Positions 1 to 5,126 of a DNA stretch of 5,126 nucleotides are shown here, in pieces; positions within the stretch are counted from its first letter, which is position 1; every line of letters starts with the position of its first letter. The notes under the pieces were generated by a model. The model had not been told where the DNA came from. It worked only from the letters and a program-made list of their open reading frames with translations, and did no database searches. Source of the DNA: a virus (taxonomy: Duplodnaviria > Heunggongvirae > Uroviricota > Caudoviricetes); IMG/VR virus record IMGVR_UViG_2778261416_000005, positions 1 to 5,126 of that record. One strand, 5' to 3'. The position numbers were made by a program, and so were the translations under genes.

Positions 1-708
1 TTACCAACTATGAGACGACCAGAATACTCTGCCAATAATCCTTACGGTTTCATGAAATTCATCTCTATCCATTACTTCATCCGGGTACTCTTCGCGATTT
101 ATTGATCTGATTATCACCGATGTAGGGGTGGCGATTAATGTTTTTACTCGTAACAAATCAGACTGGCAAATAGCGTAGGTTTTACCATCTCTGATTGTGG
201 TATCTTGCGTGTTAACACCAACAACATCGCCATCGTGAAGCGTTGGTTCCATGCTTTGCCCTACAACCCTAACTAGCTTGGCTGATCTTTCTGATACTCC
301 CATCTTTTTCAGATAGTGCTTTCTGAAAACCAAAGAGAACTCCGATGATTCCTCTAGCTCGCAGCTACCGCTTCCAGCTGAAAGCGAAACGTTAAGAAGA
401 GGCAACGCAACAAACTCGTCATCGTTTCTTTTAATGTCTTCCCATACCACAGCTTTTAAAGATGACTCACGGACATTGGATGGTTCTTCATGTGCACCAT
501 CCCTCATTTCACCAATACCAGAACTAAGCCATTCAGGGCGCACTTTTAAAGCATTGGCTAATTCAACCATCTTGCGAGATCCGTTTGTTTTACCGGACGA
601 CATCTTCTGTATGGCTGGCTGAGATATTCCAACCATGTCAGCAAGCTGTGATTGTGATACCCCTGCCGAGCTCATGGCTGCATTTAGTCTTTCTGCGAAT
701 GTTTTCAT
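1..708 (-). CDS. cI-like prophage repressor (N-terminal HTH, C-terminal S24/LexA-type autopeptidase domain)
   Basis: Translation shows an HTH segment (QSQLADMVGISQPAIQKM), a putative Ala-Gly cleavage site (LSAGSG), and S24 catalytic motifs (Ser in GQSMEP, Lys in RVKTL). Stop codon is at 1-3. The track ORF 1..738 begins with TTG; the first ATG is at 706-708 and a GTG at 712-714. The ATG start is preferred because the upstream operator palindromes begin at 721. Confidence 0.85.
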   Translation of the reverse strand: MKTFAERLNAAMSSAGVSQSQLADMVGISQPAIQKMSSGKTNGSRKMVELANALKVRPEWLSSGIGEMRDGAHEEPSNVRESSLKAVVWEDIKRNDDEFVALPLLNVSLSAGSGSCELEESSEFSLVFRKHYLKKMGVSERSAKLVRVVGQSMEPTLHDGDVVGVNTQDTTIRDGKTYAICQSDLLRVKTLIATPTSVIIRSINREEYPDEVMDRDEFHETVRIIGRVFWSSHSW

Positions 709-720
709 ACCCACAAATCT

Positions 721-783
721 ATAACTACGGTTATCCAAAGTAAAATAACAAAGGTTATTGCTATTTTTTATAACTTGAGTTAT
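721..783. promoter_or_regulatory. Tripartite operator array (OR-like) in the divergent cI/cro promoter region
   Basis: Three 14-bp sites with perfect inverted half-sites ATAAC-N4-GTTAT at 721-734, 745-758 and 770-783, centres 24 and 25 bp apart. They lie between the divergent repressor and cro-like genes. A possible PR -10 (TATAAG, 791-796) and an SD (AAGAGG, 807-812) precede the cro ATG. Confidence 0.55.
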
Positions 784-819
784 CTTTGGTTATAAGTAAT
801 GACCACAAGAGGTATGCTC

Positions 820-1044
820 ATGAATTTAGTAATTCAACGAGCCTTGAAAATTGTCGGTAGCCAAAAGCGCCTTGCCGACAAGTGTGGTGTAACGCAGCCA
901 GCAGTACACAAATGGCTGAAAGGCGGGTTGGTCTCTCCAGAGAAAGTTACCGCCATCGTTAACGCCACTGGAGGGCAGATCAAGGCTTACGAAATTCGCC
1001 CCGATTTGCCACACCTGTTTCCAAAACCGAATCAGGCAGCATAA
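820..1044 (+). CDS. Cro-like HTH regulator (Cro/YdaS-type small DNA-binding protein)
   Basis: A 74-aa ORF divergent from the repressor. SD AAGAGG at 807-812 sits 7 nt before ATG 820; in-frame ATGs at 799 and 814 lack a usable SD. Small basic protein with an HTH-like segment (GVTQPAVHKWLKGG). Stop TAA at 1042-1044. Confidence 0.75.
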   Translation: MNLVIQRALKIVGSQKRLADKCGVTQPAVHKWLKGGLVSPEKVTAIVNATGGQIKAYEIRPDLPHLFPKPNQAA

Positions 1045-1051
1045 GTAACAC

Positions 1052-1097
1052 CGCTCTTTAACAGTCATGGTCTTCATTCCCGCCGAAATGCGGGAAT
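1052..1097 (+). promoter_or_regulatory. nutR-like site: boxA (CGCTCTTTA) plus boxB-like hairpin
   Basis: boxA-like CGCTCTTTA at 1052-1060 follows the cro stop. An 8-bp perfect stem ATTCCCGC/GCGGGAAT (1076-1083 with 1090-1097) encloses a CGAAAT loop, which is GNRA-like. Position between cro and cII matches lambdoid nutR. Confidence 0.5.
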
Positions 1098-1102
1098 ACA
1101 AC

Positions 1103-1137
1103 GCGCATAAGTTGATGCGCATAACTTCTTATTTGTT
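1103..1137 (+). terminator. Candidate tR1-like hairpin upstream of cII
   Basis: Perfect 6-bp stem GCGCAT/ATGCGC (1103-1108 with 1115-1120) followed by a T-rich but interrupted tract ATAACTTCTTATTTGTT. Weak as an intrinsic terminator; lambda tR1 is Rho-dependent. Confidence 0.25.
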
Positions 1138-1180
1138 AAGGAAATACTTACATATGGTTCGTGCAAACAAACGCAACGAG
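1137..1180 (-). promoter_or_regulatory. PRE-like CII-activated promoter (TTGC-N6-TTGC boxes inside the cII 5' end)
   Basis: On the minus strand, TTGCGTTTGTTTGC lies at 1163-1176 (codons 3-8 of cII) and AAGTAT is the -10 at 1144-1149. This matches the lambda PRE architecture as I recall it. Confidence 0.6.
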
Positions 1181-1447
1181 GCTCTACGAATCGAGAGTGC
1201 GTTGCTTAACAAAATCGCAATGCTTGGAACTGAGAAGACAGCGGAAGCTGTGGGAGTTGATAAGTCGCAGATCAGCAGGTGGAAGAGGGACTGGATTCCA
1301 AAGTTCTCAATGCTGCTTGCTGTTCTTGAATGGGGTGTCGTTGACGACGACATGGCTCGATTAGCACGACAAGTTGCTTCGATTCTCACCAATAAAAAAC
1401 GCCCGGCGGCAACCGAGCGTTCTGATCAAATACAAATGGAATTTTAA
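1154..1447 (+). CDS. cII: CII transcriptional activator, near-identical to phage lambda CII
   Basis: A 97-aa protein MVRANKRNEALRIESALLNKIAMLGTEKTAEAVGVDKSQISRWKRDWIPKFSMLLAVLEWGVVDDDMARLARQVASILTNKKRPAATERSDQIQMEF, matching lambda CII from memory with about two substitutions. The upstream sequence TAAGGAAATACTTACAT ATG is also lambda-like. The track ORF 1067..1447 is an unsupported upstream extension. Confidence 0.92.
   Translation: MVRANKRNEALRIESALLNKIAMLGTEKTAEAVGVDKSQISRWKRDWIPKFSMLLAVLEWGVVDDDMARLARQVASILTNKKRPAATERSDQIQMEF
1391..1420 (-). terminator. Intrinsic terminator of the oop-like RNA
   Basis: On the minus strand, a 7-bp stem CGCUCGG/CCGGGCG (one G-U pair) with a 6-nt loop is followed by UUUUUUAUU (plus-strand A-tract at 1391-1399). 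Confidence 0.6.
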
Positions 1448-1458
1448 CAACATCCAAC
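1391..1458 (-). ncRNA. oop: oop-like antisense RNA overlapping the cII 3' end
   Basis: The minus strand reads ...CAGAACGCTCGGTTGCCGCCGGGCGTTTTTTATT, matching the 3' half of lambda OOP RNA as recalled. A perfect TATAAT -10 on the minus strand at 1465-1470 overlaps the next gene's start codon, as pO does in lambda. The 5' end is approximate. Confidence 0.55.
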
Positions 1459-1469
1459 GAGGTAATTAT

Positions 1470-1661
1470 ATGCGAAACAAAGGCTTTAATCCACCTGATA
1501 CACACAAAGAAGCTAAGCGTTTGCGCTTCCTTCGTTCCATTGATGAAAGAACTCAAATCTCTTTTGTGAAAGTTGCCAGAACTGAGCTTCTTAAGGCTGA
1601 GGCGAGGGCGTTGCTCCCGTCTCTATCCGCACAACGCAGATGGACGGTCTGTTGGCAATGA
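1470..1661 (+). CDS. Hypothetical protein (63 aa) at the position normally occupied by replication gene O
   Basis: SD GAGG at 1459-1462 sits 7 nt before ATG 1470, just after the cII stop. No family recognised. The track ORF 1374..1661 is the same frame extended upstream into cII. May be the N-terminal part of a frameshifted gene continuing in the 1573..1914 frame. Confidence 0.45.
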
Positions 1662-1914
1662 AGCAAATGGTAATTATCGATGGTACGACTACTGCAATAA
1701 CCCCGTCGATGCATGGCCGATTATTGATGACAACGAAATAGCGTTAATCCCATCAAACGACTTTGGTTGGGTTGCTATAAGTGGTTTGATGTTAAATGGC
1801 TGTTCTTCGTACATTGATCAACGTCTTGATGGTTGTTTTCAGCATAGTGATACAAACCCACTCCGCGCCGCCATGATCGTATTTCTCATGATGCAGGACG
1901 CCAATAATGCTTAG
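1573..1914 (+). CDS. Hypothetical protein, start unresolved (open frame without an ATG until 1789; possible frameshifted gene or pseudogene)
   Basis: Long open frame with protein-like composition (…[42 protein letters not shown]…). It opens with TTG and has no SD. An ATG at 1658 overlaps the stop of the preceding ORF (ATGA) but is in a third frame that closes at 1741. By position this could be a YbcN/NinE-type nin protein, but I cannot confirm it. Confidence 0.3.
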
Positions 1915-2083
1915 CCCATCCCAATCCATTCAATACCAGAAAGAAAGCGTCGAGCGGGCTTTAACGTGCGCTAACTGCGGTCAGAAGCTGCATGTGCTGG
2001 AAGTTCACGTGTGTGAGCACTGCTGCGCAGAACTGATGAGCGATCCGAATAGCTCAATGTACGAGGAAGAAGACGATGAATGA
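1907..2083 (+). CDS. ninF: NinF-like small Cys-rich (zinc-ribbon-like) nin-region protein, 58 aa
   Basis: Manual translation gives [58 protein letters not shown], with CxxC and CxxHCC motifs and an acidic tail. SD CAGGA lies 8 nt before the ATG. The start overlaps the upstream stop (ATG 1907, TAG 1912-1914) and the stop overlaps the antirepressor start by 8 nt. Absent from the ORF track because of length. NinF assignment is from memory of the lambda nin region. Confidence 0.6.
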
Positions 2084-2798
2084 GTTAATAAATGGCAATG
2101 CCATCAAAATGACAAGCATTGAAATCGCTGAGTTGGTGGGTAAGCGTCATGACAATGTGAAACGTACCATCGAAACGCTGGCTAAAAATGGTGTTATCCG
2201 GCTTCCTCAAATTGAGGTTTCCGAAAGAATCAATAACTTAGGGTTCAATGTTCAGTACGAGCATTACGTCTTCGAAGGCGAACAAGGTAAGCGAGATAGT
2301 ATTGTTGTTGTTGCCCAGTTGTCGCCAGAGTTCACCGCTCGCCTTGTTGACCGCTGGCGAGATCTTGAAGAAGCTGCGGTTAATATCCCCAAAACGCTAC
2401 CGGAAGCGTTGCGCCTTGCTGCTGATCTTGCTGAGCAGAAAATGCAACTGGAAAACCAGCTTGCAATTGCCGCACCTAAAGTTGAGTTTGCCGATCGCGT
2501 TGGCGAGGCCAGCGGAATTTTGATTGGAAACTTTGCAAAGGTTGTCGGTATTGGTCCAAACAAACTGTTTGCGTGGATGCGCGATCACAAAATCCTTATT
2601 GCTTCAGGTTCCCGGCGCAATGTGCCAATGCAGGAATATATGGATCGCGGCTATTTCACAGTGAAAGAAACAGCGGTCAACACAAATCACGGAATACAGA
2701 TATCGTTCACCACAAAAATCACCGGGCGTGGTCAACAGTGGCTGACCAGAAAGCTGCTCGATAACGGAATGCTGAAAGTAACAGGGGAGGCTGCTTAA
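2076..2798 (+). CDS. Phage regulatory protein Rha with C-terminal KilAC/ANT antirepressor domain
   Basis: A 240-aa ORF. The N-terminus (MTSIEIAELVGKRHDNVKRTIETLAKNG … LVDRW) fits the Rha domain. The C-terminus (FADRVGEASGILIGNFAKVVGIGPNKLFAWMRDHKILI … QEYMDRGYFTVKE) fits the KilAC/ANT domain. SD GAGGA lies 8 nt before ATG 2076. Confidence 0.88.
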   Translation: MNELINGNAIKMTSIEIAELVGKRHDNVKRTIETLAKNGVIRLPQIEVSERINNLGFNVQYEHYVFEGEQGKRDSIVVVAQLSPEFTARLVDRWRDLEEAAVNIPKTLPEALRLAADLAEQKMQLENQLAIAAPKVEFADRVGEASGILIGNFAKVVGIGPNKLFAWMRDHKILIASGSRRNVPMQEYMDRGYFTVKETAVNTNHGIQISFTTKITGRGQQWLTRKLLDNGMLKVTGEAA

Positions 2799-3088
2799 TG
2801 GCTAATCTACGCAAAGAAGCACGCGGCAGAGAATGCCAGGTACGTATTTACGGCGTATGCAATGGTAATCCTGAAACTACAGTTCTGGCACATTACCGGA
2901 TGGCTGGAATTTGCGGAACGGGAATGAAGCCTGACGACCTGATCGGCGCATGGGCTTGTAGCGCGTGTCACGATGAAATCGACCGACGCACCCATAATCT
3001 CGACAACAAAGACGCCAGACTTTACCACCTCGAAGGCGTGATCAGGACGCAGGCGATACTACTGAAGGAGGGGAAGATTAAGCCATGA
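2798..3088 (+). CDS. ybcO: YbcO-like DUF1364 protein (Cys/His-rich putative nuclease of lambdoid nin regions)
   Basis: A 96-aa ORF, MANLRKEARGRECQVRIYGVCNGNPETTVLAHYR…CSACHDEIDRRTH, resembling DLP12 YbcO as recalled. SD GGGGAGG lies 7 nt upstream; TAATG overlap with the antirepressor stop. Confidence 0.85.
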   Translation: MANLRKEARGRECQVRIYGVCNGNPETTVLAHYRMAGICGTGMKPDDLIGAWACSACHDEIDRRTHNLDNKDARLYHLEGVIRTQAILLKEGKIKP

Positions 3089-3447
3089 ACGAATATCAGT
3101 TTGTGCTTCCATACCCGCCGTCGGTGAATACCTACTGGCGAAGACGGGGAAGCCAATACTACATCAGCGATAAAGGCCAGAAATACCGAAAAGACGTTCA
3201 GCAAATCATCCGCCAACTTAAGTTAGACATTTTCACCAAATCACGACTCCGCATCAAAGTAATCGCAGACGTTCCGGACTCCCGCCGCCGCGACCTCGAC
3301 AACATCCTGAAAGGTTTACTCGACTCCCTTATCCACGCCGGATTTGCGGAAGACGACGAGCAATTCGATGACATTCGCGTAATTCGTGGTGTGAAAGTAC
3401 CAGGTGGAAGGCTTGGAATAAAAATCACCGAACTGGAGAACGCATGA
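3085..3447 (+). CDS. rusA: RusA Holliday junction resolvase (crossover junction endodeoxyribonuclease)
   Basis: A 120-aa ORF with RusA hallmarks (LPYPPSVNTYW…, PDSRRRDLDNILKGLLDSL…, GGRLGIKITE). SD AAGGAGGGG upstream; ATGA overlap with the ybcO stop. Confidence 0.9.
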   Translation: MNEYQFVLPYPPSVNTYWRRRGSQYYISDKGQKYRKDVQQIIRQLKLDIFTKSRLRIKVIADVPDSRRRDLDNILKGLLDSLIHAGFAEDDEQFDDIRVIRGVKVPGGRLGIKITELENA

Positions 3448-3632
3448 ACGCCACAATTCAAACGATACCAGAGCTTCTTATCCAGACACGAGGCAATCAG
3501 ACCGAAGTGGCAAGGATGCTTTCCTGCGCAAGAGGAACAGTGCTCAAGTACAACCGAGACAGCAAAGGCGAGCGTCACGTAATAGTTAACGGCGTCCTGA
3601 TGGTCAAACAGGGCAAAAGGGGAAGGCCATGA
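3444..3632 (+). CDS. ninH: NinH-like protein
   Basis: A 62-aa ORF, TIPELLIQTRGNQTEVARMLSCARGTVLKYNRDSKGERHVIVNGVLMV, matching lambda NinH (TIPDMLVEAYGNQTEVARRLKCSRGTVRKY…). ATGA overlap with the rusA stop. Confidence 0.85.
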   Translation: MNATIQTIPELLIQTRGNQTEVARMLSCARGTVLKYNRDSKGERHVIVNGVLMVKQGKRGRP

Positions 3633-3802
3633 GACTCGAAAGCGTAGCTAAATTTCATTCGCCAAAAAGCCCGATGATGAGCGACTCACCACGGGCTACG
3701 GCTTCTGACTCTCTTTCCGGTACTGATGTGATGGCTGCTATGGGGATGGCGCAATCACAAGCCGGATTCGGAATGGCTGCATTCTGCGGTACAGGGACAT
3801 AA
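3629..3802 (+). pseudogene. Q: Truncated late antiterminator Q (lambda-type N-terminal ~53 codons only)
   Basis: Manual translation from ATG 3629 (ATGA overlap with the ninH stop) gives MRLESVAKFHSPKSPMMSDSPRATASDSLSGTDVMAAMGMAQSQAGFGMAAFCG, then TGT and stop. This matches the lambda Q N-terminus as recalled, which continues KHELSQ… after FCG. Homology ends at about 3790. Confidence 0.75.
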
Positions 3803-3882
3803 AGATACAGGCCATTACCATCGAGAAGGCGGTATGGTTTTTCTTTCGGCTTTGCTGCTTCAATCTGCTTAACGGTGAGCAT
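3790..3882 (-). pseudogene. Integrase N-terminal fragment (P4/IntS-type arm-binding region, ~31 codons) truncated at a deletion junction
   Basis: Minus-strand translation from ATG 3882 gives MLTVKQIEAAKPKEKPYRLLDGNGLYLYVPV, a typical N-terminus of tRNA-associated P4-family integrases. Beyond about 3790 the reading frame is antisense Q sequence (…PQNAAIPNPACDC…). The track ORF 3655..3918 is this chimera with a GTG-start extension. Confidence 0.65.
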
Positions 3883-4043
3883 GGGTAAAAATCCGGTGGG
3901 TAAAATTATTTTATCCACTTTTTACCCGTCATGGAGTGCGGCTGTCAACGATCTGACGCGAACCATTACGAACTGTGAATCTACGGAAGTCTTGATATTC
4001 AGGGGATTTTGCGGACTGGTACGGATGGGAGCGAACTGATAAA

Positions 4044-4118
4044 TGGTGTCCCCTGCAGGAATCGAACCTGCAATTAGCCCTTAGGAGGGGCTCGTTATAT
4101 CCATTTAACTAAGAGGAC
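4044..4118 (-). tRNA. argW: tRNA-Arg (anticodon CCU)
   Basis: The 75-nt minus-strand sequence GTCCTCTTAGTTAAATGGATATAACGAGCCCCTCCTAAGGGCTAATTGCAGGTTCGATTCCTGCAGGGGACACCA has a 7-bp acceptor stem, an anticodon loop CUCCUAA and a terminal CCA. It matches E. coli argW as recalled. Confidence 0.95.
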
Positions 4119-4193
4119 AATGCGGCATGAGTATACCCGCTAATGGAGTGCGGGGTAAGTACGCTGCCGCTCGATTGCTTAAACCCTCGCCAT

Positions 4194-5126
4194 TTATGCC
4201 GGGTTTTTATAATTTTTCTTAATGTTTTCCGCACGTTCTGCTTTTTGGCGTGCTTCTGCTTTACGCTTATTGCTCATGTCGTTACGAATCTGTGCATGAC
4301 TCATTAACGCGAAGATAAAGGTGCCGCCGCAGATGTTCCCCGCTAAAGTAGGTAGTGCGAAGGGCCAGATGAAATCGCTCCAGTGCAGCGTACCGTTAAA
4401 CACCAGATAGAGGATTTCAACAGAACCGACCACGATATGGGTGGTGTCACCCAGGGCAATAAGCCAGGTCATCAATATAATCACCACAATCTTTGCCGCA
4501 CCCGCTGCAGGAAACATCCAAACCATAGTGGCGATCAGCCAGCCGGAAATGATCGCGTTGGCAAACATCTCGCTGGGGGTGTTCTTCATCACATCCATGC
4601 CGATTTTGACAAATGCATCGCGAGTTTCTTCATTGAAGATAGGCATATATTCAAATGCCCACGCCGCAATACCTGTCCCGAGAATATTACCCAGCAGCAC
4701 GACGCCCCATAACCGTATAAGTAAGCCGACGTTGCTCATTGTCGGTTTTTGCATGACGGGTAGTACCGCAGTCACGGTATTTTCGGTAAATAATTGCTGG
4801 CGGGCCATAATGACGATAATAAAACCAAAGGTATAACCGAGATTCTCCAGCAAGAAGCTGCCCGGCACACCTTCCAGTTCGACTTGAAATATCCCTTTTG
4901 CCAGTAACGAAGCGCCCATCGACAGACCCGCCGCAATGGCTGACCACAGTAGCGCCATTGCGTCGCGTTCCAGCTCTTTTTCACCATCCTGGCGGATATG
5001 CTCATGAATTGCCATCGCCCGGGAGGGGAGTCGGTCTTCATCTATTTCTATTTTTTTGCCGCGCTCTTTTTCTTCGCTCTCAACTTCAATTTCGTCGCTG
5101 TGTTGATCAATTTTGTCGTTGTCCAT
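4194..5126 (-). CDS. yfdC: Formate/nitrite transporter (FNT) family inner-membrane protein YfdC
   Basis: A 310-aa ORF with multiple hydrophobic transmembrane segments and acidic/basic termini, consistent with E. coli YfdC, which neighbours argW. The ATG sits exactly at the window end (5124-5126); stop at 4194-4196. Confidence 0.9.
   Translation of the reverse strand: MDNDKIDQHSDEIEVESEEKERGKKIEIDEDRLPSRAMAIHEHIRQDGEKELERDAMALLWSAIAAGLSMGASLLAKGIFQVELEGVPGSFLLENLGYTFGFIIVIMARQQLFTENTVTAVLPVMQKPTMSNVGLLIRLWGVVLLGNILGTGIAAWAFEYMPIFNEETRDAFVKIGMDVMKNTPSEMFANAIISGWLIATMVWMFPAAGAAKIVVIILMTWLIALGDTTHIVVGSVEILYLVFNGTLHWSDFIWPFALPTLAGNICGGTFIFALMSHAQIRNDMSNKRKAEARQKAERAENIKKNYKNPA

Follow-up and report, generated by a model that had tools for sequence, protein, structure and literature searches.

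The 5,126-nucleotide (nt) stretch analysed here, referred to as the window (positions 1 to 5,126 of the IMG/VR virus record IMGVR_UViG_2778261416_000005), is identified by its sequence as the argW locus of Escherichia coli. Its single tRNA gene, tRNA-Arg(CCT), is argW, found intact on the minus strand at 4044-4118 (ARAGORN; Rfam RF00005, 63 bits), and the flank on the yfdC side is 99.7% identical to that of strain K-12. The window is the argW-proximal end of a heavily decayed P22-like prophage of the Kapi1/HK620/KplE1 type, in which immunity and nin-region genes lead into two truncated genes that face one another: Q, encoding the late-gene antiterminator, and int, encoding an IntS/P4-type tyrosine integrase (Table 1). 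The two fragments, designated Q' and int', are joined directly with zero intervening bases, and the int side of the join falls at a nucleotide that ends other deletions in argW prophage remnants of E. coli.

The plus strand from 3629 to 3790 encodes 54 residues, all of them identical to those at the start of the Q protein of phage Kapi1 (residues 1-54 of 207). The ATG of Q overlaps the stop codon of ninH (ATGA), and three foreign codons (TGT) follow codon 54 before a stop at 3800-3802. Pfam family PF03589 (Antiterm) matched residues 23-54 of Q' (E = 3e-8; 34 bits against a cut-off of 26.7) and only profile positions 1-33 of 87 were covered, the C-terminal part of the domain being missing. The CXXC...CXXC zinc motif and Zn-finger-like region, which occupy residues ~113-199 of Kapi1 Q, are also absent. 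Q' is thus a fragment of a PF03589 antiterminator and not a functional member of the family. On the minus strand, 3882-3790 encodes 31 residues identical throughout to IntS of Kapi1 (384 residues) and of UMNK88 (382 residues), beginning with an ATG at 3882, which is 162 bp from the 3' end of argW (4044). The frame continues past codon 31 into antisense Q, generating a minus-strand open reading frame (ORF) of 87 residues from an in-frame GTG (3655-3918) and of 75 residues from the true ATG. Comparison of int' with the arm-binding profile PF13356 gave 20.7 bits, below the cut-off of 27, with just 31 of the ~85 domain residues present. Full-length Kapi1 IntS carries PF13356, PF22022 and PF00589; the central PF22022 domain and the catalytic PF00589 domain with the active-site tyrosine are absent from the window, and int' reads as a fragment of an IntS/P4-type integrase gene.

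The boundary between the two fragments could be placed to the base. Matches to the Q side in phages and in 2,378 E. coli genomes all end at 3791 (BLAST), and matches to the int side begin at 3790 (BLAST, and base-by-base comparison with Kapi1, phiv205-1 and UMNK88). The only bases shared at the junction are the dinucleotide TA at 3790-3791. On the plus strand the junction reads GGTA^AGC on the Q side and GA^TACAGGG on the int side (^ marks the break), the parental sequences being ...TGCGGTA^AGCAT in Q and ...CC(T/G)GA^TACAGGGAC in int. A preliminary description of this DNA, made from its letters alone, had placed the Q N-terminus on the plus strand up to about 3790 and the N-terminus of an IntS/P4-type integrase on the minus strand with its ATG at 3882, about 160 bp from argW, had described both genes as truncated and convergent at a deletion junction, and had taken the 87-residue minus-strand ORF for a chimera of the integrase N-terminus and antisense Q. 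Each of these readings agreed with the alignments. Its estimate of ~31 codons for int is exact, while Q keeps 54 codons where ~53 had been given. Integrase homology beyond 3790, which it had named as evidence against a junction, was looked for; int homology stops at 3790.

The two halves were found joined in none of 5,426 complete E. coli genomes, and the exact junction strings (a 37-mer and a 23-mer) gave no matches in species-representative genomes and metagenome contigs. A look-up of the exact 57-residue Q' product and of the 87-residue GTG-started ORF returned no record; the exact 75-residue chimeric product is on record for 7 contigs. Contigs from NCBI (GCA_002521955.1), Logan (ERR7366494) and ENA (ERZ27318585) are 100% identical to the window across all of its 5,126 bases. 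Since independent contigs match the window in this way, the junction is real and no assembly chimera; it is a genuine feature of a rare lineage.

Phage Kapi1 (vB_EcoP_Kapi1, a Lederbergvirus) integrates at argW, where its int adjoins yfdC/argW and its xis adjoins dsdC (PMC8787464). One strand of the Kapi1 prophage carries xis, the early-left genes and cI in that order, and the other carries cro, cII, O, P, nin, Q and the lysis, head, tail and tailspike genes, followed at the far end by a convergent int. The integrated order in argW P22-like phages is argW-att-int(->) ... (<-)tailspike, heads, lysis, Q, nin ... cI, early-left genes, xis-att. Window positions 1858-3791 aligned with Kapi1 12902-14835, and 3790-4041 with 39185-39436, showing that the window is collinear with Kapi1 on either side of one gap of 24,349 bp; this size is given in Kapi1 coordinates because the ancestor of the remnant was not found. 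The deleted block comprises the rest of Q, PR'/qut, the lysis, head and tail genes, the tailspike gene and int codons 32-384. The equivalent of Kapi1 14836-39184 is missing, in keeping with the earlier claim that the late activator, everything downstream of Q and the catalytic domain of the integrase had been lost.

The preliminary description had also argued that a normal lambdoid prophage does not have Q and int side by side, implying a deletion between two elements or a rearrangement. This argument fails because it is true of the lambda layout and not of argW P22-like phages. Since int and Q are the convergent ends of one Kapi1-type block, no second element or rearrangement is needed: one illegitimate deletion of ~24 kb within one prophage accounts for the joining of Q codon 54 to int codon 31 at the shared TA. 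We consider a single-prophage deletion at the shared TA, together with two more deletions and a non-random endpoint on the int side, to be the best explanation overall, with a probability of about 0.88. The window shares with Kapi1 and the HK620/Sf6/KplE1 module group the att core, an attL arm with the intS promoter (PintS), the IntS N-terminus and the gene order cI-cro-cII ... ninF-ant-ybcO-rusA-ninH-Q, at ~97-98% nucleotide identity in the shared blocks. It differs from Kapi1 in lacking 14836-39184 (the late region and most of int), the O/P/ninB/ninE block, the whole early-left arm, xis and attR, and in having another allele of the immunity region (cI/cro).

Clustered at 90% identity, the chimeric protein groups with four other short E. 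coli proteins, all of which consist of IntS residues 1-31 followed by differing tails. We surveyed a large, word-indexed protein collection with IntS residues 1-85 and obtained 74 short proteins. In the subset identical to E. coli IntS, the sequence after ...LYLYVPV (codon 31) diverges at once into 13 distinct tails, as against at most two tails for any other IntS codon in the first ~100. Ten of the codon-31 junctions were read in DNA, and in these the partners follow ...CCTGTA on the int coding strand. The partners are antisense Q (this window), antisense ant, a point 18 nt upstream of N, the erf/ssb boundary (contig L012), the inside of erf, antisense cro in two different alleles, antisense replication gene O, an ea22-region gene, and int itself at ~codon 230, the last being an internal 0.6-kb deletion with the tailspike gene still present. 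Deleted spans range from ~0.6 kb up to nearly the whole prophage, and all ten junctions are oriented as simple deletions, with no inversions. The retained 255-nt attL-int' segments are 3-19 nt apart between junction types and 0 within a type; because the retained haplotypes differ between types, the events took place in different prophages. The closed genome CP106756.1 contains one of the junction types, and for it the Prokaryotic Genome Annotation Pipeline (PGAP) lists a 93-nt 'Arm DNA-binding domain-containing protein, incomplete' pseudogene. A degenerate pattern (int codons 20-31 and then sequence other than int) retrieved one metagenome contig, of the same type as L010, and no viral contig. 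The int-side endpoint is non-random, the same nucleotide ending at least 13 different deletions in E. coli argW remnants, and the shared breakpoint is a real, unexplained regularity.

Intact partner sequence was recovered from phages or prophages for all ten junctions, and TA is present at the crossover in every partner. The overlap is exactly TA in nine junctions, and is GTA in comparison with Sf6 in the tenth (L012). If partner breakpoints were blind to sequence, TA in 10 of 10 would arise by chance with a probability of (1/16)^10, about 1e-12. Beyond the TA the partner flanks are dissimilar, the sole other tendency being a G at position -2 (7/10). The heptamer GGTAAGC was considered as a shared partner motif and dropped after a wider search, membership of the 90% protein cluster being enough to force a proline codon. 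When L012 was compared with the commoner E. coli prophage allele, 9 nt (GTTCCTGTA) were shared with int. In many E. coli prophages a Rad52/22-family gene ends in ...GTTCCTGTAATGAAC, which gives a 9-nt identity with the GTT allele of int.

The coding strand of intact intS reads GTACCTTT-ATG-TCCCTG-TAT-CAGGGA-A-AAAGGTA at this point, a 33-nt quasi-palindrome with an interrupted stem of 13 bp. The break falls in its 3-nt TAT loop and is, in other words, inside the loop of a stable inverted repeat. Folding of the element as single-stranded DNA gave -8.4 kcal/mol (z = -4.3), and 0 of 200 shuffles were as stable; the TCC allele of codon 32 weakens the fold (z = -2.3). In K-12 intS the stem is kept, with GTG instead of GTA and a TGT loop, and hence there is no TA. 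The quasi-palindrome is present as a single copy in Kapi1, in which no further copies were found.

The hairpin loop could be a preferred site of strand breakage or strand switching, whose broken end would be held without resection and joined by 2-nt pairing to a TA deeper in the prophage; derivatives freed in this way of lethal late genes would then persist. We propose, tentatively and at somewhat less than even odds, that the 33-nt element spanning intS codons ~25-36 is a sequence- or structure-specific break or recombination site at which an enzyme (IntS, or a structure-specific nuclease or recombinase of host or phage) produces an end that is shielded and can be joined to TA dinucleotides alone, and that it may serve as a built-in, recurrent point of self-inactivation by which argW-integrating P22-like prophages turn time and again into locked remnants. 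The nuclease SbcCD cuts the tops of hairpins and cruciforms (PMC4787754, PMC4245961). Hairpin-tip cleavage or replication stalling is a candidate that fits the structure, but the shortness of the palindrome and the exactness of the end are left unaccounted for. Another candidate is a protein roadblock that halts an exonuclease and is followed by end joining.

The same join would also result if two different elements had resided at argW, for example as tandem argW phages, and a deletion had begun in int of one and ended in Q of the next. The module is indeed found in tandem or attP-type arrangements, contig L013 having an att core and int' with no tRNA upstream, and the remnant is a mosaic, its cI region being nearest to prophage Z1323CEC0005 and its nin region nearest to another. 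However, mosaicism is normal in lambdoid phages and does not require two residents, in a single prophage of Kapi1 layout int and Q already converge from either end of the deleted block, the window is collinear with that layout, and a second att core is absent; two elements seem to us improbable. It could be argued instead that the deletion is a random one at microhomology and that its apparent recurrence stems from assembly errors, clustering or shared descent, as the survey was biased towards short proteins, membership of the cluster forced the first five tails to share a proline, and one junction type may rest on 9-nt homology. Such a coincidence is very unlikely, given that the junctions are identical across the NCBI, Logan and ENA assemblies and the closed genome, that a 2-nt overlap is too short for misassembly, and that haplotypes differ between junction types. 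Shorter fragments also score worse, so the bias disfavours codon-31 fragments, which nonetheless dominate. Several points do weigh against a single-prophage deletion with a specifically made int-side end. An ancestral prophage for this remnant was not found, and the survey gave short proteins only, so it provides no absolute frequencies. The L012 event may be ordinary short-homology recombination. Ends made by nucleases are normally resected, yet the retained end is exact in every case, and the intS palindrome is far shorter than those cut by SbcCD (PMC4245961, PMC4787754).

With regard to the agent that made the end, IntS itself, bound to the arm sites of attL, might cleave a pseudo-core within int and exchange one strand with any site whose first two bases are likewise TA, the resulting Holliday junction being resolved by the host or by replication, in analogy to the classical Int-promoted deletions of lambda. 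This would be consistent with an endpoint that is nucleotide-exact in every event, with TA at 10/10 partners and no longer homology in eight or nine of them, with the occurrence of deletions only, and with the location of all partners inside the same prophage. IntS arm-type sites overlapping PintS are ~90-200 bp away, the breakpoint carries a hexamer, TATCAG, that is also found directly after the 17-bp core in attL, and the event would be self-limiting because int is destroyed by it. However, local alignment of the breakpoint region with the att core gave a score of 7, which was reached by 45-50% of shuffles and genome windows, and the partners share little past TA save the G at -2. The inverted half-sites are 3 bp apart, compared with 6-8 bp in the cores of tyrosine recombinases, and published mapping of IntS/TorI sites in attL ends at +64 of intS, the breakpoint lying at +91/93 (PMC2951348). 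We regard IntS as a rather doubtful agent. A secondary (pseudo-)att core at the breakpoint was considered and rejected, its similarity to the attP core being that expected by chance (2,000 shuffles, 3,000 genome windows). Alternatively, a transposase, whether IS630/Tc1-like and TA-targeting or of another kind, could have used TA^CAGGGACAT... in int as a pseudo-end and produced adjacent deletions, since a fixed end with variable TA targets and a 2-nt overlap is the formal signature of intramolecular transposition. Against this, none of the ten junctions has an insertion sequence (IS) or transposase in it or nearby, and inversions, which would also be expected, number zero. No IS remains at the junction, the fusion being direct here and at the nine others, and we know of no E. 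coli IS end that matches the int breakpoint sequence; we give this possibility very little credence.

Classical lambda Int-promoted deletions have one endpoint fixed at att. The codon-31 deletions resemble them in having an invariant endpoint and variable partners within the same phage genome, and in being deletions only. They differ in that the codon-31 endpoint lies 252 bp from an intact att core, within the int ORF, and has no significant similarity to the core, so that the feature which defines an att-anchored Int-promoted deletion is missing. The codon-31/TA pattern also resembles nick-site-anchored deletions at rolling-circle origins. The likeness to palindrome breakage by SbcCD is that the break falls within the loop of a DNA hairpin whose stability is statistically significant, whereas the palindromes studied in SbcCD systems are hundreds of bp in length and the intS stem is an interrupted one of 13 bp, with an exact end that is always at TA. 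No description of a recurrent codon-31 endpoint with a TA rule was found in the literature searched. The Q-int junction itself is ordinary prophage decay. If the mechanism proposed for the int-side endpoint is real, domestication of prophages at argW would be channelled via one fragile or enzyme-targeted nucleotide of int, beyond random erosion and selection, and natural illegitimate deletions that are one-ended and precise to the nucleotide, a rarity in E. coli, would have an example here. In annotation terms, the shared endpoint accounts for the family of 31-codon 'DUF4102 / Arm DNA-binding domain' pseudogenes beside argW.

A number of further IntS truncations and junctions were seen. On L013 (1928-2196), a codon-31 int' junction with an att core has upstream of it no tRNA but an acyltransferase (oac-like) gene and a 194-residue ORF. 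This context is that of an attP-type arrangement or a tandem prophage, and codon-31 deletions are not confined to a simple attL context. At the protein level, smaller clusters of truncations with differing tails were found at codons 76-79 (five), 94 (two) and 43 (two); at least one of these, P0014, which is fused to antisense ant, lacks a TA overlap. Three frameshifted IntS fragments (P0060, P0062 and P0043; codons 33-36, DNA GGGAAAAAGG) map to the A5 run directly 3' of the palindrome, and these represent either a slippage hot spot or sequencing error. In P0074, IntS codons 1-29 run into int codons ~24-3 in reverse complement; this snap-back or inverted-duplication junction near the palindrome may be real or a library artefact. 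A secondary deletion junction in L014 has a 13-nt overlap, unlike junctions of the codon-31 type.

The core sequence, AATGGTGTCCCCTGCAG, is as published for Kapi1 (PMC8787464), and the attL arm is identical to that of Kapi1 at 154/161 positions and to that of UMNK88 at 160/161. The boxes of PintS lie on the minus strand, with the -35 box TTGACA at 3948-3943 and the -10 box TAAAAA at 3924-3919, and both match the boxes reported for PintS of KplE1 (PMC2951348). A scan of 3400-4250 for promoters and terminators gave counts equal to the shuffled expectation, and PintS was placed from the published boxes instead. Three arm-type-like repeats of GGGTAAAA are present, at 3883-3890 (+), 3898-3905 (+) and 3920-3927 (-), and a plus-strand ORF of 52 or 54 residues (3875/3881-4039) corresponds to Kapi1 hyp25 (Kapi1_070). 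The window has the arrangement of the KplE1/HK620/Kapi1 recombination module, namely the core, an attL arm with PintS, and int transcribed away from the tRNA. As PintS is intact and the IntS and TorI repressors are gone, the chimeric 75-residue ORF is probably still transcribed, and this would occur without repression. Both the chimeric ORF and an antisense transcript over Q'/ninH may be constitutive.

Two other deletions have affected the remnant, which is otherwise collinear with Kapi1 and BEN2908 and is ~4.8 kb in length. The deletion at 1624/1625 removed the replication genes O and P (helicase), ninB, ninE and the N-terminus of NinX, amounting to 3,408 bp in BEN2908 coordinates, and the truncated NinX covers positions 36-114 only of its Pfam profile. 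The third was seen on L002, a longer contig that provided 20 kb of context around the window. Synteny with K-12 resumes there at dsdX nucleotide 706, dsdX codon 236 being fused directly to phage DNA, and the early-left arm, xis/torI, attR, dsdC and the first 235 codons of dsdX have been removed. A 14-nt sequence, ATTGCCGAATTGAA, is found on both sides of the dsdX junction, at L002 14631-14644 (phage) and 14704-14717 (dsdX), and we have no explanation for it. An attR with a recombination directionality factor gene (torI/xis) on the dsdC side was not found in the 20 kb of L002, which contain one core only.

Having no integrase, no excisionase and no second att, the remnant can neither excise nor make particles, and excision would fail even if integrase were provided in trans. 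The earlier suggestion that the prophage is locked in place was strengthened by the single att core in 20 kb and by the additional loss of xis and attR. The junction explains an inert element that is devoid of Q, late genes, integrase, excisionase and attR. A known counterpart is CPS-53/KplE1 of E. coli K-12, likewise a defective remnant, with an integrase of the same family at the same site (yfdC-argW ... dsdCXA). The K-12 element has kept intS intact, together with torI and the two att sites, and can still excise (PMC2951348), whereas in the window remnant int is cut at codon 31 and torI and attR are gone. The argW-dsdCXA hypervariable island is known, from reports that cite Moritz & Welch (2006), to be a hot spot where prophage remnants are found and where dsdC and part of dsdX are lost (PMC8787464, PMC4366372). 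In enterohaemorrhagic E. coli (EHEC), truncation of dsdCX is linked to the csc sucrose genes, while in the strain from which the window derives dsdX is fused to phage DNA left of cI. The strain has probably lost regulated use of D-serine, as dsdC and half of dsdX are gone.

Table 1. Features of the window and the adjoining dsdX junction. Positions are those of the window unless contig L002 is named.
Feature	Position	Strand	Description and basis
cI-like repressor	1-708	-	HTH_3 + Peptidase_S24; Pfam
cro	820-1044		intact ORF; Pfam
cII	1154-1447		intact ORF; Pfam
Second deletion junction	1624/1625		TA overlap; small gene after cII (Kapi1_024 homologue), codon 52, fused mid-ninX
ninF	1907-2083		intact ORF; Pfam
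ant	2076-2798		KilAC/Rha antirepressor, intact ORF; Pfam
ybcO	2798-3088		intact ORF; Pfam
rusA	3085-3447		intact ORF; Pfam
ninH	3444-3632		intact ORF; Pfam
Q'	3629-3802	+	truncated late-gene antiterminator; 54 Q codons, 3 foreign codons, stop
Chimeric 75-residue ORF	3655-3882	-	int codons 1-31 + 44 codons of antisense Q
Q-int deletion junction	3790-3791		2-nt overlap TA common to Q side and int side
Retained arm of intS quasi-palindrome	3790-3808		single-stranded DNA fold
int'	3790-3882	-	IntS/P4-type tyrosine integrase, codons 1-31 only; partial arm-binding domain
attL P' arm with intS promoter	3883-4041	-	comparison with published PintS boxes
att core, 17 bp	4042-4058		AATGGTGTCCCCTGCAG; overlaps argW 3' end; sole copy in 20-kb context
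yfdC	4194-5126	-	chromosomal flank; formate/nitrite transporter family
Third deletion junction	L002 14671-14672, ~790 bp beyond window position 1		CT overlap; phage DNA left of cI fused to dsdX

All eight retained phage ORFs (cI, cro, cII, ninF, ant, ybcO, rusA and ninH) are full length despite the three large deletions, and are 96-99% identical to the genes of functional phages. Such preservation would point either to recent decay or to retention of the immunity and nin genes. The top Pfam score of the cro-like ORF was to YdaS_toxin (PF15943, 64 bits), and its score against the P22_Cro model was lower and under the cut-off of that model.

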